Virus record (IMG/VR): IMGVR_UViG_3300035698_029289
Location: 1 to 64,000 of that record
Reading direction: 5' to 3' (one strand)
DNA: 64,000 bases
Source of the DNA: a virus
Shown here: piece after piece, positions 3,404-57,187 of the stretch
Numbering within the stretch: the first letter of the stretch is position 1
How the letters are laid out: the number at the start of each line of letters is the position of its first letter
Translations under genes and position numbers: made by a program
Notes under the pieces: generated by a model
The model's input: only the letters and a program-made list of their open reading frames with translations
Database searches by the model: none
Told to the model about the DNA's origin: nothing

Positions 3404-3598
3404 TTAAACCTTTGTTAGCTTGTAAATCTTGATGGTTTTTTCTATTTCTTTAATTTCTTTGGCATCTTCCTCGGTGTTGTCTATCCATTCAAGAATTGCC
3501 TTGTTGACTGCTGGCAGGGAGTCAAAAACCTGTTCGGGATATACTCCGGTAGTGATGACGCTTTCATTGTAGCCTTGAAAAGTCGCTATATATTTCAT
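3404..3598 (-). CDS. hypothetical protein
   Basis: RBS AAGGGGGTGA. Confidence 0.7.
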   Translation of the reverse strand: MKYIATFQGYNESVITTGVYPEQVFDSLPAVNKAILEWIDNTEEDAKEIKEIEKTIKIYKLTKV

Positions 3599-7130: not shown

Positions 7131-7133
7131 TTG

Positions 7134-7210
7134 GGTATCCGAGCGGATTCGAACCGCCACCATTCCGGGTTCACAGCCCAGTGCTCTAAACCAATTGAGC
7201 TACGGACACC
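7134..7210 (-). tRNA. tRNA-His(GTG)
   Basis: Cloverleaf; anticodon arm CTGGG-CTGTGAA-CCCGG; G-1:C73; no encoded CCA. Confidence 0.93.
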
Positions 7211-7219
7211 ATATTGTTG

Positions 7220-7292
7220 TGGAAAGTTCTGGAGTTGAACCAGAATCCCCTGATTTTCAGTCAAGTGCCGTGACCACCTTGGCTAACTTTCC
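7220..7292 (-). tRNA. tRNA-Phe(GAA)
   Basis: CTTGA-CTGAAAA-TCAGG; T-loop TTCAACT. Confidence 0.92.
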
Positions 7293-7300
7293 TTATTTTG

Positions 7301-7371
7301 TACCGTTACGGAGAATCGAACTCCGGTTATTGGGATGAAAACCCAACGTCCTGCCACTAGACTATAACGGC
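7301..7371 (-). tRNA. tRNA-Glu(TTC)
   Basis: TTGGG-TTTTCAT-CCCAA; T-loop TTCGATT. Confidence 0.9.
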
Positions 7372-7375
7372 TTTG

Positions 7376-7450
7376 CGAGGTCGATGGGATTTGAACCCAC
7401 GGTCTACGGCTTGACAAGCCGGCGCTTTGTCCGGACTAAGCTACGACCTC
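7376..7450 (-). tRNA. tRNA-Asp(GTC)
   Basis: CCGGC-TTGTCAA-GCCGT; G73. Confidence 0.92.
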
Positions 7451-7455
7451 TAGTG

Positions 7456-7529
7456 TGGACCCGAGGAGATTCGAACTCCTAACCTACTCTGTGCAAAAGA
7501 GTCGCTCTAGCCGTTAGAGCTACGAGCCC
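7456..7529 (-). tRNA. tRNA-Ala(TGC)
   Basis: ACTCT-TTTGCAC-AGAGT; G3:U70 present. Confidence 0.93.
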
Positions 7530-7533
7530 TTGT

Positions 7534-7618
7534 TGGCGGAAGATAGAGGAATTGAACCTCTCTGTCCCGAAGGACACGGTTTTCAAGACCGAGGCGACCC
7601 AGTACGCTTTAATCTTCC
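7534..7618 (-). tRNA. tRNA-Ser(TGA)
   Basis: CGGT-CTTGAAA-ACCG; long variable arm TGTCC-TTCG-GGACA; G73 and CCA. Confidence 0.88.
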
Positions 7619-7623
7619 TTGTG

Positions 7624-7711
7624 CGGAAGAGGCGAGATTTGAACTCGCGTATGGAAAAACCAATTCTCCCTTAGCGGGGGAGCACGGTCAACCGGCGCCG
7701 TTTTCGCTTCC
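7624..7711 (-). tRNA. tRNA-Ser(GCT), C33 variant
   Basis: CTCCC-CCGCTAA-GGGAG; long variable arm; G73. Confidence 0.82.
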
Positions 7712-7786
7712 TAATTTTCTTCTTCTTCTTTTAAGCTTCCTTGCCCTTCTTTTGGCCAGGTTCTTTTTTTTCTTCGATTTTGCCAT
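7688..7786 (-). CDS. putative 32-aa Lys/Arg-rich peptide
   Basis: MAKSKKKKNLAKRRARKLKRRRRKLGSENGAG; fills the Pro-Ser tRNA spacer and its 3' end overlaps tRNA-Ser. Confidence 0.45.
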   Translation of the reverse strand: MAKSKKKKNLAKRRARKLKRRRRKLGSENGAG

Positions 7787-7789
7787 TTG

Positions 7790-7861
7790 TCAGGGATGGG
7801 AATTCCGAGATCCCGGCCTCGCGGGCCCAGGCCGCGCGCTCTGCCTCTGAGCTAATCCCTG
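7790..7861 (-). tRNA. tRNA-Pro(TGG), C33 and atypical T-arm
   Basis: Acceptor CAGGGAT/ATCCCTG-A; CGCGG-CCTGGGC-CCGCG; T-arm GGGAT-CTCGGAA-TTCCC. Confidence 0.8.
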
Positions 7862-7864
7862 ATA

Positions 7865-8065
7865 TTACTTTGATTTTACCTCATATTCTCCTACATAGTC
7901 AATGTAATCTTCATCCGCGGAAAAGGTGACTCCTTTTACCGGGGCATCTTCGTCTTTTCCGTGACCCGGAATATAGAGATCGACATAATCATACATCCTG
8001 GTAAAACACCACATTCCGACCCACATTAAGATTCCGCTGATAATTCTTTCTATTTTATCTTTCAT
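7865..8065 (-). CDS. small protein with N-terminal hydrophobic helix
   Basis: Fills the Tyr-Pro tRNA spacer exactly. Confidence 0.65.
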   Translation of the reverse strand: MKDKIERIISGILMWVGMWCFTRMYDYVDLYIPGHGKDEDAPVKGVTFSADEDYIDYVGEYEVKSK

Positions 8066-8067
8066 AG

Positions 8068-8152
8068 TGCCGCCTAGAGGTATCGAACCTCTCTAATCTT
8101 CTCAGATTTCGGCTTTACAGGCCGAGTCGCATCCTTAACGATTTACGACGGC
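8068..8152 (-). tRNA. tRNA-Tyr(GTA)
   Basis: TCGGC-CTGTAAA-GCCGA; long variable arm; A73. Confidence 0.88.
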
Positions 8153-8602
8153 TTACCACCAAAGAGCGTGATACCATTTCACAAATAACTTCATTCCTTT
8201 CTCTCTCTGCTTTTCCAGTTTTTTCCATTGTTTGATAGTTGGTGTGTCATCTTGCTTTTTTGCCGCTTCAAACCCTTTTATCATTTGATTTAGTATTTCA
8301 TCCCATTTTTTGTATGCCTTTTTCCATTGTTTTTCTGTCAAATCTGGTTCTCCAAGTGAAGCAGGGCAGCTTCTTTGGTATTTCTTCATACTTCTTAGTG
8401 CATCGGGGATCCAACTGGATAGATAGTAGTCCAAACCCCAAGCGTCGCAGTCAGACCAACCTCTTTTGCCTCGTTGGATAAACCATTTGATCTCCGTCAG
8501 TATCTCTCCTGGTTTTTCTAATACTCTTTCGATTGGCCACCAAATGTTTGCCTCCAACCACTCAAGCTTTGTTTTTGGTTTCCATTCCTCTAATTTTTTC
8601 AT
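8153..8602 (-). CDS. conserved phage hypothetical protein
   Basis: True start ATG 8602 (MKKLEEW); QRGKRGWSDCDAWGLDYYL...WDEILNQMIKGF...GMKLFVKWYHALW. Confidence 0.8.
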   Translation of the reverse strand: MKKLEEWKPKTKLEWLEANIWWPIERVLEKPGEILTEIKWFIQRGKRGWSDCDAWGLDYYLSSWIPDALRSMKKYQRSCPASLGEPDLTEKQWKKAYKKWDEILNQMIKGFEAAKKQDDTPTIKQWKKLEKQREKGMKLFVKWYHALWW

Positions 8603-8678
8603 GGTCCGAGTTAGGAGATTCGAACTCCTACTATCTGCTTGGAAAGCAGAGATGCTAGCCATTAAACATTAAACTCGG
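8602..8678 (-). tRNA. tRNA-Gly(TCC), atypical C1:G72 and A73
   Basis: TCTGC-TTTCCAA-GCAGA; CCA encoded. Confidence 0.88.
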
Positions 8679-8679
8679 T

Positions 8680-8754
8680 TGGTTGCGAAGCTAGGTTTCG
8701 AACCTAGATTACGAAGGCCAGAACCTCGCGTACTACCAGTTATACTACCTCGCA
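8680..8754 (-). tRNA. tRNA-Gln(CTG)
   Basis: CGAGG-TTCTGGC-CTTCG; U1:A72; CCA. Confidence 0.9.
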
Positions 8755-9251
8755 TTATATTTTTTGTTTCTACCAGAAAAGGTTGGTGTTTGGCTATTGC
8801 AGTTTGGGCAAAGCAACCTAAGGTTTTCTAGTCTATTATCGTTTTTAATTCCGTTGATATGGTCTAAAACTAACACTAAAGGTTTCCCTCGCCATTCGGG
8901 TTTAAGCCTACAGTCGGAATTTGCACACTTGTTTTCAAGCAACCCCGCCCTAAAAAGCCTAATTTTGAGACGCCATCGATTACTATAGGTAGAGTTTCTA
9001 ACAAGTATTTCCTCGAGTGGGCGTCCACTGTTAGGGAATTTTCTTCCTTTGTTGCTATTTAGGCCTGTTGGAATGTGCGAATAATCAACTTTGTCTGATT
9101 TAAGCCTTGTTTTTAATGTTCTAATATTCCCACCGATATTATTGAGTTTAAAATGTTGTAGTATAGCAGAAAAAGTTTTGCTTTTAACAACAAGTTTTTC
9201 CAATTCACTTTTTGGAATTTTCCATATTGGACTTCGTTTTCTCCTATTCAT
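8745..9251 (-). CDS. HNH endonuclease
   Basis: LVLDHINGIKNDNRLENLRLLCPNCNSQT; own promoter TTGACA(9286)-17-TACCAT(9263). Confidence 0.92.
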   Translation of the reverse strand: MNRRKRSPIWKIPKSELEKLVVKSKTFSAILQHFKLNNIGGNIRTLKTRLKSDKVDYSHIPTGLNSNKGRKFPNSGRPLEEILVRNSTYSNRWRLKIRLFRAGLLENKCANSDCRLKPEWRGKPLVLVLDHINGIKNDNRLENLRLLCPNCNSQTPTFSGRNKKYNAR

Positions 9252-9307
9252 ACTAAAATGGTAACATATCTTAATAGACTTGTCAAGAACCTACCATTTT
9301 AGTTCTA

Positions 9308-9383
9308 TGGTTGCCAGACTAGGATTTGAACCTAGAATTTGCAACTTCAAGGGCTGCCGTGTTACCGATTACACTACCTGGCA
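9308..9383 (-). tRNA. tRNA-Gln(TTG), C33 variant
   Basis: GCAGC-CCTTGAA-GTTGC; U1:A72; CCA. Confidence 0.87.
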
Positions 9384-9384
9384 T

Positions 9385-9461
9385 TGGCGGCACGAGACAG
9401 GAATCGAACCTGTATTCTCTCGTTTTGGAGACGAGTGCTTTCCCAGTTAAGCTACCCGGCC
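9385..9461 (-). tRNA. tRNA-Trp(CCA)
   Basis: CTCGT-CTCCAAA-ACGAG; G73 and CCA; one bulged base in acceptor stem. Confidence 0.9.
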
Positions 9462-9468
9462 TTATTTG

Positions 9469-9598
9469 TGGGGATAACAGAGTTGTAGCTGCCAGTGTGC
9501 CTCACTATCACTCCCTTGATGTACAATCCAAAATACTTACAACGAAGTGTAAGATTTAACACTCGCACTTCCGGTCTGTTTTAAAGACGCTATCCCCA
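9469..9598 (-). ncRNA. putative structured RNA B
   Basis: 10-bp closing stem TGGGGATAGC/GTTATCCCCA plus internal hairpins, inside tRNA operon. Confidence 0.5.
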
Positions 9599-9609
9599 TT
9601 AAGCGGTCA

Positions 9610-9711
9610 ATTGACTGCTTAGTGAGACGAGCAATGGATTTTATGCTAGAAATGGGCCAAGAGACCAAAATCCCTCTGCTCCACCAACCTCCGCCTCACT
9701 AAATTGTCAAT
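9610..9711 (-). ncRNA. putative rod-shaped RNA A
   Basis: TTGAC..TTAGTGAGGCG / CGTCTCACTAA..GTCAA, then GAGCA..GGATTTT / AAAATCC..TGCTC. Confidence 0.5.
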
Positions 9712-9713
9712 GT

Positions 9714-9787
9714 TGGCTCCAAGGCTGGGAATCGAACCCAGAACCAGTGATTAACAGTCACGCGTGATACCGTTTCACCACCCTGGA
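9714..9787 (-). tRNA. tRNA-Asn(GTT)
   Basis: GTGA-CTGTTAA-TCAC; U1:A72; G73 and CCA. Confidence 0.93.
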
Positions 9788-14938: not shown

Positions 14939-15814
14939 ATGGTAATTAATCGCAAGAAATTCATTGAGGAACAATTTTTGATTCTCAGCAAAGAGAATAA
15001 GGTGGTTCCATTTCATTTTTGGCCCGTTCAAGAAAAGTATTATAATATGTTGGTTGGTGATTATGGGCCGGAATTAAAAGGAACAAGGGAGATCATTTTG
15101 AAGGCAAGGCAGCAGGGATTTTCAGCTTTGGTTCTAGCACTTTTCACAGTCGATTTTATTACTAACCCGAACAGTGTTTCAATTTGTATTTCCCATAGGA
15201 AGGATGCCACTCAAATGTTGTTCAAGCGCGTGAAGTTTTTTCTTGAGAGCTATTGTAATAAACACAAGTGGGATATTAAGAGATATTTAGCGACTGATAG
15301 CAAAAACGAGATAGAGAATAGGACAAATAATGCCTATTTTTATATTGGTACAGCTGGATCGAAGGTTGGTGGCAGAGGAGGAACTGTGCAAAATATACAT
15401 TTTTCCGAGGGTGCGTATTATTTGGACACCGACAGAATCACGGCCAGAGAAATGATTGAAGGAACGAGTCAACAGGTTGCTCAGGGAACTGGAATAATTT
15501 TTATTGAATCCACAGCCAATGGTTATGGGAACTATTATCAGCATGTTTGGGAAAAGGCAAAGAGGGGAGAAAGCACTTATAGGCCAAGATTCTTTAGTTG
15601 GGAGGAGTTTTATGACAAAGAATGGGTTGAAAAGAAAAGGGGCGACTTTGAATCGGAAGCAATGTGGAAGCAAGAATATCCTCTGACAGCTCGAGAGGCA
15701 TTCATTTCCTCTGGAACTCCATTTTTCGATCATGCTGTATTAGAAAAATTATTGGAAAAACAGGTTGAACCAATAAAAATGGGAAGGCTTGCCCAGGATG
15801 GGCAGTGGATTTAA
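14939..15814 (+). CDS. terL: terminase large subunit, ATPase domain
   Basis: LKARQQGFS Walker A, IHFSE Walker B, ESTANG coupling motif, WKQEYP. Confidence 0.92.
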   Translation: MVINRKKFIEEQFLILSKENKVVPFHFWPVQEKYYNMLVGDYGPELKGTREIILKARQQGFSALVLALFTVDFITNPNSVSICISHRKDATQMLFKRVKFFLESYCNKHKWDIKRYLATDSKNEIENRTNNAYFYIGTAGSKVGGRGGTVQNIHFSEGAYYLDTDRITAREMIEGTSQQVAQGTGIIFIESTANGYGNYYQHVWEKAKRGESTYRPRFFSWEEFYDKEWVEKKRGDFESEAMWKQEYPLTAREAFISSGTPFFDHAVLEKLLEKQVEPIKMGRLAQDGQWI

Positions 15815-16452
15815 TGGCAAAATTACCACTGAAAGATCCATTTCGACTCTACCGCCAATTGGAGGATGGTGAACAATTTTGTATCTTTGGCGATCCAGCA
15901 GAGGGAAGAGATTTTTGTGCAGCAGCAGTGGTCAGTAAAAGACATGGAGATTTTCCCTTAATTTATAATAATCGCACAGAAAGCTCTCAATTTGGCTATG
16001 ATATTCATAAAATAGCGAAATATATCCACCGCAAAACTGATTTGTGGCCAATGGTTGCTATTGAAAGAAATGTCGGTGCGGCGACAATCTTTGTTTTGCA
16101 GGAATTGAATTATCCCCGTATGTTCAGAATGCCTGTTTTTGATAGTGCGACTCACAAGGAAACTACCAAAATCGGTTGGCTTACAACAAGGGCGACTCGT
16201 AGCAAAATGTTGAATGATTTTGCCATGGCATTGAGGCAGGGCCAAGCTATGGTTTACGACCAGGAAGCCATCGAGCAAATGTTGGCTTTTGTTTACAAGT
16301 TAGGGCGGGGGCAAATCGAGGCGGGGAAGAAAGATGACTTGGTGATTGCTCACAGTGGAGCATGGCAGCTTTATTTGCTTGTTCCGACCCTCAGTGACGC
16401 AGATGAAGATATAGACTGGGAAGAAGAAAGAAGGAAGTGGAGGTTCAAATAA
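15814..16452 (+). CDS. terminase large subunit, RNase H-like nuclease domain (separate ORF)
   Basis: IFGDPAEGRD, AIERN, GWLTTRATR, KDDLVIA. Confidence 0.9.
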   Translation: MAKLPLKDPFRLYRQLEDGEQFCIFGDPAEGRDFCAAAVVSKRHGDFPLIYNNRTESSQFGYDIHKIAKYIHRKTDLWPMVAIERNVGAATIFVLQELNYPRMFRMPVFDSATHKETTKIGWLTTRATRSKMLNDFAMALRQGQAMVYDQEAIEQMLAFVYKLGRGQIEAGKKDDLVIAHSGAWQLYLLVPTLSDADEDIDWEEERRKWRFK

Positions 16453-16742
16453 TGTCAAAGAAATTTATTGATTACCATAAACAGAAAAGTCACAATGAAA
16501 GAATGATTTCCGAGCTTTTGCGGAAAGTGCGACCAGACATTTGGGTTTTAATGGATTTGATAGACAAGACGGATATGAACCCAATAATAGTATTTAAGTT
16601 TCTGAGGCAAGTCAACAATGTCATTCTGGGGTCGGGGTGGGGGCAAGTGACGCTAGTAATTAACAATAGGGTGGCAAAATATATTCGCGGTGAGGACACA
16701 GATAAAATCGAAGCAGAGATTGTTTTGCCACGACCAAAATAG
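16452..16742 (+). CDS. small protein with DUF2292/YezD-like C-terminal motif
   Basis: SGWGQVTLVINNRVAKYI resembles G(Y/F)GxVxIxIxxG; ends 8 nt before the leader-1 promoter. Confidence 0.55.
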   Translation: MSKKFIDYHKQKSHNERMISELLRKVRPDIWVLMDLIDKTDMNPIIVFKFLRQVNNVILGSGWGQVTLVINNRVAKYIRGEDTDKIEAEIVLPRPK

Positions 16743-16749
16743 TCAACTA

Positions 16750-16860
16750 TTGACAAGACAAAATTTTTGTTGTAGTGTTTAATTAACAGTTACTTGAAGC
16801 GAAAAAGCGCTAGAGGACTGCAATATACCCGAGTGGGCGTGATTGCAGTCCTTTTTATTT
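16750..16860 (+). promoter_or_regulatory. late leader 1: promoter, conserved hairpin, overlapping terminator
   Basis: TTGACA-17-TAGTGT; CAGTTACTT-GA-AGCG-AAAAAG-CGCT-A-GAGGACTG; terminator AGGACTGCAAT/ATTGCAGTCCT-TTTTATTT. Confidence 0.8.
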
Positions 16861-16872
16861 GAATTATTAACT

Positions 16873-18942
16873 ATGGCCCAAAAGAAGAAAGAAAGAAAAC
16901 CAAAAGGTGTTATCGCCTTTTCAGAGTTAAAGAATCACTACGATTTAGCCAATGATGAGACTGACAAAAGACGGACGGGTCGAGGAAAAATCGGAACGAT
17001 TTCTTTTGACGAAGCAGACGAGTTGTTCCGTTCTTGGCTCGATGAAGATAGTTGGCCATATGATGCTCTCCTTTTTGATCCTCGCGTTTTCACTTTTATT
17101 TTTGAAAAGACTTCAAGGTTAATCTCCAACAAACTCAGAGGAAGATTGATTCCCCGAGAAGGTGGAGATATGTTGGCGGCTCATATCAATAACGAGTTAT
17201 TGAGTTTTCAATGGGATCAGGCGACTCATAGCGGCTCAATGATTTCAAAATGGGCTTTAATGGATTTGAATGCGAGGAAGTATGGCGCTGCTTTTGCTTT
17301 GTGTAAATGGCGCTATGAGCTTGCTCCTGATGAGAAAGTTTTGTTTGACGGACCGGGAATGCAAATTTTGAATAATAGAGATTGTCTCCCCGATCCGGCG
17401 GCGACAGACATTGAGTCTTGTAACTGGTTCCAAGCTAGGCAATATGTTACTTTTCAAGACCTTGAAAGGGTTAATGATAGAGCGCGAACGAAGCCTGTTT
17501 ACAAAAATCTTGATAAATTAAGAACAGTAATTAGCCAGAAAGCAGAGAAGAGCGGTGGAGATTCCCGAGACATTAACTGGACATCTCGAAATCGACAAAT
17601 TTCTGGACTTACCACAGATCCGGTTGGAAAAGACGCTGCCTTCAAGACAGTAGAGATTGTGACAGAATACCGGAAAGGTCGCTGGATCACCTTTTCGCCC
17701 CGACATGGAGTCATCCTTCGAGATATTGCCAATCCATATCACAATAATGAGATTCCGATTGTAATGCTTCGCTATTATCCGATCGATGACGACTTGTATG
17801 GCATGAGCGAAATTGAGCCAGTTAAAGGATTGCAAAAGGCAATCAATGCCATCCTCTCTCAATATGTGGATGAAATCAACCAAAAGCTTTATACGCCTAT
17901 TGCTGTCGGTCCTGGTGTTCGGCAGCACACATTGCGATGGGGAAAGGGTGCGAGGTGGATTATGAACAATCCAATGACAGACTTTCGATTGGTTGAATCT
18001 CGGTCGAATGCGGCACAATTCTTCAACAATACCTATTCTGTATTAGTGGCCGCTTTAATGAATTCTATCGGAGAAACTTCTTTGGGAGTTTCCAATATTA
18101 GCAGGTTTCAAGCAGAAAAGACTGCGACTGAGGTGAAACAGCTTGTTTCTCAAAGAAATGCACGGGATAATTTCAATCAGACATTTTTGGGAGAGGCGCT
18201 TAAAAGACAAATGATTCTGTGGCATACCATGAATCAAGTAATGATATTCAGCGATCCAGAAAAGAAATCCTATGTTATTCGGATTATTGGAAGAGACGCA
18301 ATCCGATACTTTGAAGAAAGCGGGATTGGGGCTTATGGCTTGACCGAAGAGGGAGCAAAATTGCTTCAAGAAAACACAGAAAGGACGATGGCAGAAGGAG
18401 GCGAAGAAACAGGAATTCCAGAGGACTTCATGATTCCAATGTCGCCAGTGTCAATGGGAGAAGAAGAGGAGGCTATCCCCAAGTTTTCTCTTGACATGAG
18501 CAAGCAACTTGGTACTTTAGTTATAGAGCCAGAGGATTTAAAAGGAAATTATGATTTCATTGCCGATGTGGAATCGATGGCTTTATCGGCAGGAGAACAG
18601 CAAATGCAAGGAAGAAAAGCTGCTTTCAATATGCTTCTTTCTAATCCGCTGGTAGTAGAATTTTTGGCAAAGGAAAAAGTGAGACCGAAGTTTAAAGATT
18701 TGTTTGTTGCATGGCTTGAGGATGTTGGAATGAAAGATGCTGAGAAGTTCTTTGAAAATATTCCGCCTGAGGAAATGCTTGGTCCACCGGGAATGGGACA
18801 ACCAGGAATGGGTCAGCCCGGAATGGCTCCGCAGGGAATGGGACAGCCACCAATGACAATGGGTAGTCCTATGCCAGGAGGTCCAGGCGGCGTGGCTCCA
18901 TTAGCTCCTTCTCCGAGAGCGAGAGGAGGTGGAACAGTTTAA
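16873..18942 (+). CDS. portal protein (P22-like)
   Basis: About 690 aa after terminase; NPY..NEIP...YGMSEIEPV..LQ..IN, KTATEV; PGMGQ-repeat tail. Confidence 0.9.
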   Translation: MAQKKKERKPKGVIAFSELKNHYDLANDETDKRRTGRGKIGTISFDEADELFRSWLDEDSWPYDALLFDPRVFTFIFEKTSRLISNKLRGRLIPREGGDMLAAHINNELLSFQWDQATHSGSMISKWALMDLNARKYGAAFALCKWRYELAPDEKVLFDGPGMQILNNRDCLPDPAATDIESCNWFQARQYVTFQDLERVNDRARTKPVYKNLDKLRTVISQKAEKSGGDSRDINWTSRNRQISGLTTDPVGKDAAFKTVEIVTEYRKGRWITFSPRHGVILRDIANPYHNNEIPIVMLRYYPIDDDLYGMSEIEPVKGLQKAINAILSQYVDEINQKLYTPIAVGPGVRQHTLRWGKGARWIMNNPMTDFRLVESRSNAAQFFNNTYSVLVAALMNSIGETSLGVSNISRFQAEKTATEVKQLVSQRNARDNFNQTFLGEALKRQMILWHTMNQVMIFSDPEKKSYVIRIIGRDAIRYFEESGIGAYGLTEEGAKLLQENTERTMAEGGEETGIPEDFMIPMSPVSMGEEEEAIPKFSLDMSKQLGTLVIEPEDLKGNYDFIADVESMALSAGEQQMQGRKAAFNMLLSNPLVVEFLAKEKVRPKFKDLFVAWLEDVGMKDAEKFFENIPPEEMLGPPGMGQPGMGQPGMAPQGMGQPPMTMGSPMPGGPGGVAPLAPSPRARGGGTV

Positions 18943-25860: not shown

Positions 25861-26038
25861 GGGCAAATGTGCTTATTGTGGAAAGGAAATTACCATTGAT
25901 TCTGTTCGGAATGCTAAGGTTATTTATTGTTGTCGTGCTTGTGCTTCCATGGCCCGTTACCAAAAGCGATATGTCGGTCCTAGAAGCGGAAGAGGCGATA
26001 TGCCTACATGGGATAGGAGAAAATTCAAGAGGTCTTAA
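25835..26038 (+). CDS. small Zn-finger protein
   Basis: CAYCG...YCCRAC; RBS GGGGGTGA. Confidence 0.65.
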   Translation: MQDTTKRPKGKCAYCGKEITIDSVRNAKVIYCCRACASMARYQKRYVGPRSGRGDMPTWDRRKFKRS

Positions 26039-26862
26039 TGAAAAAAGTAAAATTGGCTTTCATTTGCGACATGCCGAAAGAACATTTTCTCCACTGGAAT
26101 GATGGTCTTGCTGCTGCTCTTCGCTATTTAGTCAAAAAATACGACTGGGAGGTAAAGATTTACAACTTGCCGTCAATGGAAGCTCCAGAAGTCTCCGAAG
26201 ACTCAGATTTTCACCTTTTTTGGGGAGCACTTGATCAGAAACAGCATCATCATCGTTTTTTCAAGAAACAGGGATTGTGTTTCGGTGGTGGTCCCACTTA
26301 TCACCAGAACGCCAACAATTTTGACATTATATTTGCTGAAAGCAGGGTTGATTTGGAGGAACTCAAGAAATCGGGGGTGAAAACAATGCAGGCTTTTGGG
26401 ACTAATACTAAACTCTTTCGGCCAATTCCTGAACAACCTAAGATTTGGGATTTTATTTATGCCGCAGCCTTTGCCAAGTGGAAACAACACGATGTATTTG
26501 TTCAACAGATTAAAGACAAGAAAGCATTGGCCGTAGGATACATGCAACCAGGAGGATGGGAAAAAGTATGTTATGAAATTTGCTTGAAGAATGGAGTGAT
26601 GGTAATGCCATGGGTTCCTTATAGTGTCATGCCGTGGCTTTACAACGCCTCTAGGGCGTGTTTAATAACCGCTGACACTACTGGAGGATGTCAGAGACAA
26701 GTTCTTGAAGCAAAGGCCTGTGGTATCCCTGTTTCAATAGTTTCCAGTTCGCCAAAACTTGAAGAACTTGCTGATTTAACAAGAAAGGAAATTCTGAGGG
26801 ATTGGAGCGAAAAGGCTTATGGGGAAAAGTTGAAAAAGGGGATAGAAGAGGTTTTAAAATGA
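26038..26862 (+). CDS. GT-B glycosyltransferase (GT4-like)
   Basis: NTKLFRP, WKQH, GGCQRQVLEAKACGIP. Confidence 0.8.
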   Translation: MKKVKLAFICDMPKEHFLHWNDGLAAALRYLVKKYDWEVKIYNLPSMEAPEVSEDSDFHLFWGALDQKQHHHRFFKKQGLCFGGGPTYHQNANNFDIIFAESRVDLEELKKSGVKTMQAFGTNTKLFRPIPEQPKIWDFIYAAAFAKWKQHDVFVQQIKDKKALAVGYMQPGGWEKVCYEICLKNGVMVMPWVPYSVMPWLYNASRACLITADTTGGCQRQVLEAKACGIPVSIVSSSPKLEELADLTRKEILRDWSEKAYGEKLKKGIEEVLK

Positions 26863-31738: not shown

Positions 31739-32583
31739 ACAATAATGTCCAAGCACTAATCTTTTCGTATAATCGTCCAATGCAATTGGATCTTTTGTTG
31801 AGCAGTATTAAAAGGAATATTACTGGCTTTGATAAAATTTTCGTTACCTTCAATTATTCCAATGACAAATTTCTTAAAGGCTATGAGATGTTGATGAAAA
31901 AGGGGTTGGCAGATGAATGGCACTGTGATAAAGACTTTGCCTACACTCCTGGCTTTAAGGACTATCTCGTGGGGTTAATGGGTACTAAATATCAACACAC
32001 TTGTATCTTCTCTGATGACGATATTGTTTTTGGAAAGGCTTCCATGGATGATGTTGTTTCCCTCATAACGAATGATGTTATTTCTTTCCCCTTGAGATCT
32101 GGCCTTAATGCCAATTACAGTTTTTATGGTGGAACCACTATAATCGAAAATCCATGGGGAGAATATGAGGATTTGGGAAAGTTCATTAAATGGGATTGGA
32201 CAACATATAATCCAAAGCGTTGCAATGGTTATCCTATAGCATTTGGAGATGGTGGTGTTTACAGGACTCAAGTAATAAGAAATTTACTGAAAAGGGTTGA
32301 GGGACAATCACCTAATGAGATAGAAAGACATTTGAATGAAAAAGAATCGAGGAAGGTCATCACTCAACACAATCTGGCTGCATACAAACATAGCGTATTA
32401 GTAAGCACACCGGTTAATTTGGTGCAAACATTTTCTCCTTTGTTTCATGGTGAAAAATTCAGTTACCCTGTTGGAGAATTAAATGACGCATATTTAAAAG
32501 GATATATTATTGATTATGATAAAATAGATTTTAGTAATATTAAAGGAACTCATCAAGAGTTAAAATTACCATTAAGGAGGTAA
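31735..32583 (+). CDS. putative GT-A glycosyltransferase
   Basis: FSYNRPMQLDLLL.S, FSDDD. Confidence 0.7.
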   Translation: MNNNVQALIFSYNRPMQLDLLLSSIKRNITGFDKIFVTFNYSNDKFLKGYEMLMKKGLADEWHCDKDFAYTPGFKDYLVGLMGTKYQHTCIFSDDDIVFGKASMDDVVSLITNDVISFPLRSGLNANYSFYGGTTIIENPWGEYEDLGKFIKWDWTTYNPKRCNGYPIAFGDGGVYRTQVIRNLLKRVEGQSPNEIERHLNEKESRKVITQHNLAAYKHSVLVSTPVNLVQTFSPLFHGEKFSYPVGELNDAYLKGYIIDYDKIDFSNIKGTHQELKLPLRR

Positions 32584-37659: not shown

Positions 37660-37760
37660 TTGACAGGATCCCTTTAATTTAGTTAGAATGATTTAATACC
37701 TCCGAAGCAGCAAATTGCTAGGGGGGAACAAGAGACAAATTTTATTTGTCTTTTTTTGTT
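37660..37760 (+). promoter_or_regulatory. late leader 2
   Basis: TTGACA-18-TAGAAT; CCTCC-GA-AGCA-GCAAAT-TGCT-A-GGGGG; terminator AGACAAAT/ATTTGTCT-TTTTTT. Confidence 0.8.
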
Positions 37761-37763
37761 GCC

Positions 37764-38316
37764 ATGAATGATGAGATAGTTACCACACCATTGCCAGAAG
37801 GGAAAGAAAAATTGGGGAAAGATCGGCCCGAGACGGAACAGGAAGTTAGAGTAACAAAACAACTAGAGCAATTTCAAACAGAAAAGAAAGAAAAAATTGC
37901 TAAGCCAATCTATAAAAAAGAGCCTCCCGTAAAAGCAGAGGTCGAAGAAAAAGTCAAGGAAGCAGTTGAAGAGGAGGTCAAAGAAAAAGAGCCAGTTGTT
38001 TCTCCGGAAGACTATTACTTGACTGATCCTCTTTTTTATAAAGTGGCGAATTATTTCGGGCTAGCACAAAGAGATTGGAGCATTGCCAAAGACAAATTGT
38101 CTGTGATTGTTGACTGGGCTGTTCTTAGAACTCAATCACGGAAAGCCGCTGATGTTTTAACAGCGATTCGTGCATTAGAGGATGAGATTACCTCGCCTGG
38201 TCTGGGAGAAAGAAGATATGCCAATGTTCACAAATTTGTTCGCTTATTGGGTCAAAAAGAATCTTTAGAAAAAGAGTTAAAAGTTTATAAAAAACATGAA
38301 GTAAAGGAGGTGGTAA

Positions 38317-38324: not shown

Positions 38325-40639
<2,315 letters not shown>

Positions 40640-45777: not shown

Positions 45778-45876
45778 TTGACAAAGGATAATTATCCTTA
45801 GTATAGTTAAATTACATATTCTCCGAAGCAGCAAATTGCTAGGAGAAGGCAAGCTTTATTGGCTTGCCTTTTTTGT
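45778..45876 (+). promoter_or_regulatory. late leader 3
   Basis: TTGACA-18-TATAGT; TTCTCC-GA-AGCA-GCAAAT-TGCT-A-GGAGAA; terminator AAGGCAAGC/GCTTGCCTT-TTTT. Confidence 0.82.
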
Positions 45877-50922: not shown

Positions 50923-51020
50923 TTGACAAGGAAGCGAATTGTTGTTTTAATTAATTATAGAGTCTGTTAAGCGGGAAACGCTCGCAGACGACAATAGGGT
51001 CTAACCGACCCTTTTTTATT
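50923..51020 (+). promoter_or_regulatory. late leader 4
   Basis: TTGACA-17-TTTAAT with TG; GTCTGT-TA-AGCG-GGAAA-CGCT-C-GCAGAC; terminator AGGGTC/GACCCT-TTTTT. Confidence 0.75.
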
Positions 51021-53134: not shown

Positions 53135-53791
53135 ATGAGAAATAAAAACATTATACATAAATGTAAAAACTGTGGAAAGAAATTTTTCCATCGGTCGAAA
53201 GGAGCTAATAAATATTGTTCTCATAAATGTTATGTCGAACATTATTGGACAAAGGAAAGACGAGAAGCTCAAGCAATAAAAAGTAGAAAAAGAATATTAA
53301 GTAAAAATCCTATGGAAAATAAAGAAAATAGAAAAAAAGTAAGTTTGTCTAAACTAGGAAAAAAAAGAAAGCCATTTAGTAAAAAATGCAAAGAAAATAT
53401 GAGCAATGCTCATAAGGGAGAAAAGAGTTGGTTTTGGGGAAAAAAGGGAAGTCAGCATCCTGGTTGGAGAGGTGGTTTATCATCATTGAATCAATTAATT
53501 AGAAGCAATGGTTTAATGGACTCTTGGAGAAGAAAAATATTCGAAAGAGACAATTTTACTTGTCAGGAGTGTAAAGGAAATGGGCGGTTAGTAGCACATC
53601 ATATTGTTACTTTCATAACTCTCTTGCGAAAAAACCATATAACAACAGTAAAAGAGGCAGAAAAATGTGATGAACTATGGAATCTTGATAATGGTATAAC
53701 TCTATGTAAAAAGTGTCATGACCCTACGATTAAAAGAGAGAAATTATATGAAGAAAGATACAAGGAAATTATTGAAAGTTTCAATGTTTAA
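53135..53791 (+). CDS. HNH endonuclease
   Basis: WRRKIFERDNFTCQEC, AHHI, NGITLCKKCH. Confidence 0.9.
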   Translation: MRNKNIIHKCKNCGKKFFHRSKGANKYCSHKCYVEHYWTKERREAQAIKSRKRILSKNPMENKENRKKVSLSKLGKKRKPFSKKCKENMSNAHKGEKSWFWGKKGSQHPGWRGGLSSLNQLIRSNGLMDSWRRKIFERDNFTCQECKGNGRLVAHHIVTFITLLRKNHITTVKEAEKCDELWNLDNGITLCKKCHDPTIKREKLYEERYKEIIESFNV

Positions 53792-53796
53792 CTAAT

Positions 53797-53967
53797 ATGC
53801 CAGGACCAGGAAGTCGCATTTCTACTTGGAAAATTTGCCCAGAATGTGGAGAGGAATTTTTATCTTACACAAGGAAGATTTGTGAGGATTGTTATCAAAG
53901 ATTGAGATATCAAAGAAAGAAGAAAAAGTTACTTCAAAAGAAAAAAGAATTGTTGAACATAAAATGA
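53797..53967 (+). CDS. small Zn-finger protein (56 aa)
   Basis: CPECG...CEDC then basic tail. Confidence 0.6.
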   Translation: MPGPGSRISTWKICPECGEEFLSYTRKICEDCYQRLRYQRKKKKLLQKKKELLNIK

Positions 53968-54119
53968 AAGAAAAGGATTTTGTTATCAGGAAATATTGGG
54001 GTTCTTTTGGCATCAGAAGAAGTGCTAAACCAACTGTTGAATCAGCTGAACTAACTCGTGATGAAAAGAACGCCGAATGGGTGCGAAAAAAAAATAAAGA
54101 GGCGGAAAGCTGGCTTTAA
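53964..54119 (+). CDS. hypothetical protein
   Basis: ATGA overlap. Confidence 0.45.
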   Translation: MKEKDFVIRKYWGSFGIRRSAKPTVESAELTRDEKNAEWVRKKNKEAESWL

Positions 54120-57090: not shown

Positions 57091-57187
57091 TTGACAAAGG
57101 TGGAGGCATGGTTTAATAATGTATTATATGTTCATAAGGCGGTTTAATCGCTAGTGAACAAGAAGAGCCGATAATTGGCTCTTTTTT
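57091..57187 (+). promoter_or_regulatory. late leader 5
   Basis: CCCTTGACAA, AT-rich -10 region; GTTCAT-AA-GGCGG-TTTAA-TCGCT-A-GTGAAC; terminator AGAGCCGA/TTGGCTCT-TTTTT. Confidence 0.75.

Follow-up and report, generated by a model that had tools for sequence, protein, structure and literature searches.

A 5'-end leader hairpin that competes with a terminator ahead of the portal gene of an uncultivated phage

Introduction

The order of a promoter, then a terminator and only then a gene is a hallmark of controlled termination, and this order is found in front of the portal gene of the phage studied here (IMG/VR record IMGVR_UViG_3300035698_029289). The question raised by this locus is what decides whether transcription started at such a promoter stops at once or goes on into the gene. 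Antitermination as a means of timing phage late genes is a textbook subject, known from a handful of systems (N, Q, put). An initial annotation of the locus had described its leader as an exclusive switch between an antiterminator hairpin and a terminator, and had listed four further leaders of the same kind in the genome. Herein we analyse the structures of these leaders, their counterparts in related phages and the candidates for an acting factor.

Results

Gene order and the parts of leader 1

The virus record is a single contig of 73,979 bp with a CheckV completeness estimate of 78%, and its first 64 kb (64,000 nucleotides) constitute the window to which the coordinates below refer unless stated otherwise. 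Searches by megablast and tblastn against deposited phages gave no useful relative. On the + strand the genes run from 11443 to about 66700, and leader 1 is placed between a conserved ORF, here called P0001, and the portal gene, with the following parts.

16437..16742, + strand: P0001, conserved 101-aa ORF, with its stop 7 nt upstream of the -35 box of leader 1
16750..16778, + strand: sigma-70-type promoter of leader 1, with -35 TTGACA at 16750-16755, a 17-bp spacer and -10 TAGTGT at 16773-16778
16787..16820, + strand: hairpin of leader 1, with an outer stem 16787-16795/16813-16820 of 8 bp and one bulged A
16813..16820, + strand: segment common to the hairpin and the terminator, 6 nt by strict count (16815-16820) and 8 nt with U-run pairs
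16815..16860, + strand: intrinsic terminator of leader 1, with a 10-bp stem 16815-16824/16842-16851 and a U run at 16852-16860
16873..18942, + strand: portal gene, matching PHROG portal families, at the head of the putatively gated block

Transcription probably starts at about 16785, and the hairpin would thus begin at about +2 to +3. Within the hairpin, the inner stem AGCG/CGCT is formed by 16798-16801 with 16808-16811, an internal loop GA/A separates it from the outer stem, and the loop has 6 nt; folded alone, the hairpin has an energy of -10.0 kcal/mol. The terminator stem, which encloses a small CCC/GGG hairpin, reaches -19.8 kcal/mol by itself, while the fold of the whole leader has -28.1 kcal/mol with z = -4.8 against shuffles. 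The heptamer AGGACTG at 16814-16820 does belong both to the 3' arm of the hairpin and to the 5' arm of the terminator, exactly at the positions first given for it. The terminator arms had been drawn as 16814-16824/16842-16852 (11 nt), with an additional A-U pair that uses the first U of the U run.

In total, five modules of promoter, hairpin and terminator are present in the 74-kb phage as described at the outset, and they occur only before late gene blocks, in sense orientation and one per block. The strong intergenic terminators on the + strand of the late blocks are the five module terminators and a last one at 66739-66761 (genome coordinates), the sole one without a hairpin. This arrangement of one abutting hairpin per terminator indicates a local rather than a processive action. 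As to the terminator at 66739-66761, it closes the + strand late block and is perhaps the only one intended to stop transcription for good.

Several other features of the genome were observed along with the modules. The large terminase is split into an ATPase ORF and a nuclease ORF (window 14939-15814 and 15805-16452) that overlap by a few bases, and the relatives likewise have two genes. Twelve tRNA genes are located on the minus strand in two clusters amid small minus-strand ORFs (window 7133-9787). Another minus-strand region, which is probably early (L057:3132-7066; genome 67132-71066), has genes for a DUF2201 metallopeptidase/VWA protein, for a MoxR-type AAA ATPase, for a ThiF/E1-like protein and for a weakly matching PARP/ADP-ribosyltransferase-like protein; four of these occur in the relative G001 as well.

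The either-or fold of leader 1

The hairpin and the terminator of leader 1 are mutually exclusive, as the initial annotation had proposed: the terminator state has -28.1 kcal/mol, whereas forcing the outer stem gives only -16.5 kcal/mol. In fact the full fold at -28.1 kcal/mol consists of the terminator plus the inner stem only. Since the terminator is so much the stabler of the two, termination is expected to be the default. When the folding of the growing transcript is followed, the complete hairpin exists from 16821 to 16845, and from 16848 on the terminator replaces the outer stem. Above the shared stretch, four CAAU/AUUG pairs provide a toehold for this strand exchange. Conversely, a lock on the hairpin would leave the terminator with 4 bp of stem and its small inner hairpin. 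When the full leaders are folded, the outer stem of leader 1 has a pair probability of 0.0, versus 0.7-1.0 in leaders 2-5, and leader 1 alone has a true either-or fold in this genome.

The other four modules

The remaining modules, all on the + strand, are as follows, where the gaps of leaders 2, 4 and 5 are measured from the hairpin to the G+C part of the terminator stem.

37660..37757, + strand: module 2, promoter, hairpin 37699-37725, weak terminator 37734-37750 and U run 37751-37757; gap of 8 nt
45778..45874, + strand: module 3, promoter, hairpin 45820-45846, terminator 45848-45868 and U run 45869-45874; helices 1 nt apart
50923..51017, + strand: module 4, promoter, hairpin 50962-50989, terminator 50997-51011 and U run 51012-51017; gap of 7 nt
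57091..57187, + strand: module 5, promoter, hairpin 57129-57160, terminator 57165-57181 and U run 57182-57187; gap of 4 nt

A partial overlap through GAGAA had been claimed for leader 3, but it arises solely from A-U and G-U pairs with the U run and is no true overlap; in the minimum-energy fold both helices stand whole, side by side. That leaders 2, 4 and 5 lack a real overlap is borne out by their gaps of 8, 7 and 4 nt respectively, and their terminators are weak, with strict stems of -3.7 to -8.0 kcal/mol. These gaps mean that strand exclusion is not the whole mechanism. With four of the five copies free of overlap, either a second effect operates, be it steric or directed at the polymerase, or the core mechanism does without an overlap and leader 1 has it as an extra feature. 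The earlier inference of a steric or polymerase-modifying action from the non-overlapping copies is reasonable but unproven.

The hairpin as an RNA family

The leader hairpin is a real RNA element. Its five copies in this phage have five different outer-stem sequences and every one of them pairs, and the whole leaders 1-5 fold 4.3-6.4 standard deviations better than shuffles. Beyond the five local copies, it recurs in about 22 modules of related IMG/VR phages. When IMG/VR and JGI metagenomes were searched by way of the portal and of P0001, about 30 related loci were obtained; whole contigs were examined for five relatives more distant than the closest ones (60-74% identity in P0001). Five modules are found in G001 (at 3411, 29404, about 32168, 37992 and 38511) and three in G003. 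A metagenome scan yielded L056 as a new leader, besides a leader truncated at the end of its contig and another that contains inserted ORFs. In the consensus, an outer stem of 5-7 bp is followed by a 2x1 internal loop, having two 5' nucleotides that end in a near-invariant A and one 3' nucleotide, and then by an inner stem of 4-5 bp with an A/C-rich loop of 3-6 nt.

A covariance model built from eight gapless cores retrieved 14 true instances, while a model built from three local copies alone was too narrow. In the alignment of these 14 sequences, which was fitted to the structure of the model and hence favours that structure, 96% of the cells pair and all nine pairs show compensatory double changes; none of 500 shuffles scores as high, and pairing is 28-46% when the partner is slid. 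RNAalifold on MAFFT alignments of the hairpin, which were out of register, found nothing, and an exact-pattern scan of IMG/VR for the core of leaders 2 and 3 matched in coding sequence only. As for known families, only tRNAs pass the Rfam gathering score in the window, and a search with leader 1 and ten leaders of relatives gave nothing credible at E <= 1-10.

Three other readings of the element were considered and rejected. A DNA operator disagrees with outer arms that vary between copies yet pair, with the G-U pairs and with the asymmetry of the 2x1 loop, which makes no DNA palindrome; the G-U pairs and this loop point instead to a strand-specific sense RNA. A boxA-like element was considered for the UUUAAC in the 3' arms of relatives, but these bases are paired in the relatives, and none of the five copies of this phage has the sequence. 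Pairing of an A-rich loop with the U run fails likewise: leader 5 does not have an A-rich loop, and at termination the U run is part of the RNA:DNA hybrid. It may be added that the 3' arm and junction in many relatives, for example L040:950-965, resemble the core of the ribosomal (rrn) boxA (UUUAAC).

The position of the hairpin is conserved as well. In nearly all modules 37-42 nt separate its first base from that of the -35 box, which corresponds to a predicted +2 to +7; the exception is the module at 38511 in G001, where the distance from the -35 box is about 60 nt. In the G002/G004 clade (G002 = L016-L019; for example G002:7700-7760, reverse strand), plain promoters with leaders of about 10 nt stand where this phage has its modules, and these must thus have been gained or lost within the lineage.

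The junction across relatives

We counted the overlap in 27 modules as the hairpin nucleotides that also take part in the terminator stem, with U-run pairs excluded and partly by eye. Leader 1 has the largest value (6 nt), and it is followed by L027 (4 nt) and by L003 and the G001 module at 32168 (3 nt each). Thirteen portal leaders (G001, G003, L001, L002, L007, L011, L029, L030, L034, L039, L040, L042 and L050) share 2 nt and five modules share 1 nt, while overlap is absent in leader 3, whose helices are adjacent, and in leaders 2, 4, 5 and the G001 module at 37992, with gaps of 4-8 nt. Hence all of the 18 syntenic portal leaders that have a terminator, this phage included, share 1-6 nt at the same junction, and the sequences of their terminator stems differ. 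In the syntenic regions without a terminator (L004, L005, L009, L031, L045 and L048/49) the hairpin is absent too. The overlap in portal leaders is not due to chance, and it supports a contest of the hairpin against the terminator. In the relatives with an overlap of 1-2 nt the cost to the hairpin is little, and both helices coexist in the minimum-energy folds.

The portal-leader terminator is nested in several relatives (L001:1690-1745, L012:3480-3535, L002:2885-2940 and L020:6690-6750): the loop of the outer stem contains an inner hairpin with a U run of its own, and another U run comes after the outer stem, so that two stop signals are combined.

Search for a putative acting factor

Profile searches were made for proteins that could act on the hairpin. 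The CAT RNA-binding domain (PF03123) has no match at E <= 1 in six frames of the 74-kb record; ANTAR (PF03861), Phage_antitermQ (PF06530), sigma region 4 and the Com zinc-ribbon gave no match in the phage either, and no transcription-related family was hit when about 40 ORFs from outside the virion gene blocks, early genes included, were compared with Pfam. Zinc ribbons of the form C-x2-C ... C-x2-C with a basic tail of the RYQ(K/R) type were observed in two small ORFs or gene tails (window 25869-26102 and 53790-53970).

P0001 is a further, weak candidate by its location, as its gene immediately precedes the portal leader in all relatives and is expressed from an ungated upstream operon, and its structure is predicted with confidence (three helices and three strands, pLDDT 87). 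However, the gene is kept in relatives without modules, such as G002 (62 kb), which has plain promoters at the equivalent places; its conserved residues are mostly acidic or polar rather than basic; and its model has no fold match (best Z 4.2). The DUF2292-like signal at its C-terminus is weak, with a best E of 0.023, seen in 8 of 16 relatives and missing from the phage's own copy, and we know of no function for the DUF2292 family. On these grounds it is very unlikely that P0001 is the antiterminator that binds the hairpin. The family itself has about 100 aa with many invariant acidic or polar residues, and it is always found between the large terminase and the portal leader; Cys/His-rich mini-ORFs occur just upstream of its homologue in L001, L002, L006 and L011.

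Discussion

A proposed factor-dependent gate and its alternatives

We consider it an evenly balanced possibility that leader 1 is one of five factor-dependent stop-or-go gates on the virion genes. According to this model, the host-type promoter would fire and the first 35 or so nucleotides of the transcript would fold into the conserved two-part hairpin. By default, the stronger terminator would capture the 3' arm of the hairpin by strand exchange, and transcription would stop about 70 nt from the predicted start. A trans-acting factor, most likely a phage protein, would recognise the constant features of the hairpin, namely the A/C-rich loop, the A of the internal loop and the pairs with which the inner stem begins. 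With the outer stem thus held shut, the terminator would be denied the base of its stem beside the U run, and the polymerase would presumably read into the portal gene. The terminator-stem bases adjoining the U run are those that matter most for termination. The nucleotides in contest would number 6-8 in leader 1 and 1-4 in most relatives. As for the local copies without overlap, an extra steric or polymerase-directed effect would be needed, such as that of putRNA at the mouth of the exit channel (PMC9378689). The analysis shows that both structures exist and exclude each other, that the hairpin covaries, that its junction with the terminator is conserved and that hairpins are provided one per terminator; to this the model adds the probable start, the putative factor and the expected read-through.

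The gaps of 4-8 nt in leaders 2, 4 and 5, which bear the same hairpin as leader 1, also fit a different explanation, in which the hairpin is a polymerase-modifying antitermination site of the nut/N or put kind. By itself or with a protein bound to it, the hairpin would dock on RNA polymerase close to the RNA exit channel and render the enzyme resistant to the terminator, and the overlap seen in leader 1 would be due to incidental crowding. It is in keeping with such a site that the inner stem with an A-rich pentaloop resembles boxB in general shape, that the hairpin is always a few nucleotides from the 5' end of the transcript and directly upstream of the terminator, and that putRNA blocks hairpin formation at the mouth of the exit channel, where it is located (PMC9378689). 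A processive system, however, has no need of an own hairpin for each terminator, and a factor-free element would render the adjacent terminator pointless. Moreover, the junction overlap is kept in 18 of 18 portal leaders despite the turnover of the terminator sequence, no single-stranded boxA-like element is common to the five copies, and one hairpin of 26-34 nt is to be compared with a two-stem put of about 70 nt. We therefore regard this explanation as possible but rather unlikely. The modules might otherwise be no gates at all: the hairpin could be a stabiliser of the 5' end, or the transcripts of about 70 nt could be small RNAs or protein sponges, with the late genes transcribed by leak or from other promoters. 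A hairpin 2-7 nt from the predicted 5' end is indeed like the 5' stabilisers of Firmicutes, a hairpin followed by a terminator is the typical layout of a small RNA, and leaders 2, 4 and 5 have weak terminators (-3.7 to -8.0 kcal/mol for the strict stems). But a stabiliser requires neither a conserved A in the internal loop nor a particular loop composition, the confinement of the modules to the fronts of late blocks, in sense orientation and one each, speaks against it, and the conserved junction of hairpin and terminator would be left without a role, which makes this reading improbable.

Comparison with known systems

A close counterpart of the proposed gate is the RAT/LicT system, where a hairpin partly overlaps a much stabler terminator and excludes it, a factor is needed, and the action is local with one site per terminator (PMC3105407). 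The likeness to the BglG/SacY/LicT-RAT systems of Bacillus and E. coli covers a hairpin of about 30 nt, an asymmetric internal loop and exclusion by overlap, and it holds for leader 1 and, at 1-4 nt, for the relatives; it does not extend to leaders 2, 4 and 5, which are not overlapping, and four of the five local copies are without true overlap. RAT differs further by its consensus sequence and by a second asymmetric internal loop in a hairpin of about 29 nt, while the phage hairpin has one 2x1 loop and another sequence, begins almost with the first base of a phage late transcript and is found in a phage without a match to the CAT RNA-binding domain.

Lambda N/nut likewise employs a phage-encoded hairpin near the promoter with a purine-rich pentaloop, and nut lets the polymerase pass terminators; but nut is processive, serves an operon from one site and needs boxA and Nus factors, whereas here a hairpin abuts each terminator and no single-stranded box is common to the five copies. 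The putRNA of HK022, which has about 70 nt in two stem-loops, blocks the formation of the terminator hairpin from the mouth of the exit channel (PMC9378689). It is a promoter-proximal cis RNA like the phage element, but it is factor-free, acts through the beta' zinc-binding domain and works over 10 kb, while the latter is a single hairpin of 26-34 nt tied to one terminator; canT of Tn916 is a processive cis RNA (PMC11658703). With the lambdoid PR'-tR'/Q system the phage shares a constitutive late promoter, a terminator at once after it and virion genes that would be held back, but the signals read by Q are a DNA site and a sigma-dependent pause, while the phage element covaries as RNA and the phage has no PF06530 match. 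The target of ANTAR is a pair of hairpins with hexaloops, which differs from the single hairpin of this phage, where PF03861 finds no match.

In transcriptional ON riboswitches, for example the adenine riboswitch pbuE, the 3' strand of the closing helix is also the 5' strand of the terminator, and stabilisation of the helix prevents termination. The closing helix of the phage hairpin shares its 3' strand with the terminator in the same manner, but the hairpin seems too small and plain for a ligand pocket, and no riboswitch family was matched.

Implications for late transcription in uncultivated phages

Nothing like this hairpin gate was described in the literature that we searched, and with no match in Rfam either, the hairpin family appears to be undescribed. 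We tentatively suggest, at a confidence a little short of even, that it represents an undescribed antitermination system of uncultivated phages, in which a 5'-end hairpin of 26-34 nt, read by a factor, opens the terminator of each late operon through a local competition for the 1-8 nucleotides needed to close its stem. If true, it would be a phage counterpart of RAT made of a new RNA and a new protein. The natural variants with overlaps of 6-8 nt, of 1-4 nt or of none make strand exclusion and an effect at the level of the polymerase directly testable against each other. If confirmed, the gate would enlarge the set of N, Q and put by an RNA motif and a factor that are both new, would offer a short portable switch of about 110 bp for synthetic control, and would aid the annotation of late operons in uncultivated phages.
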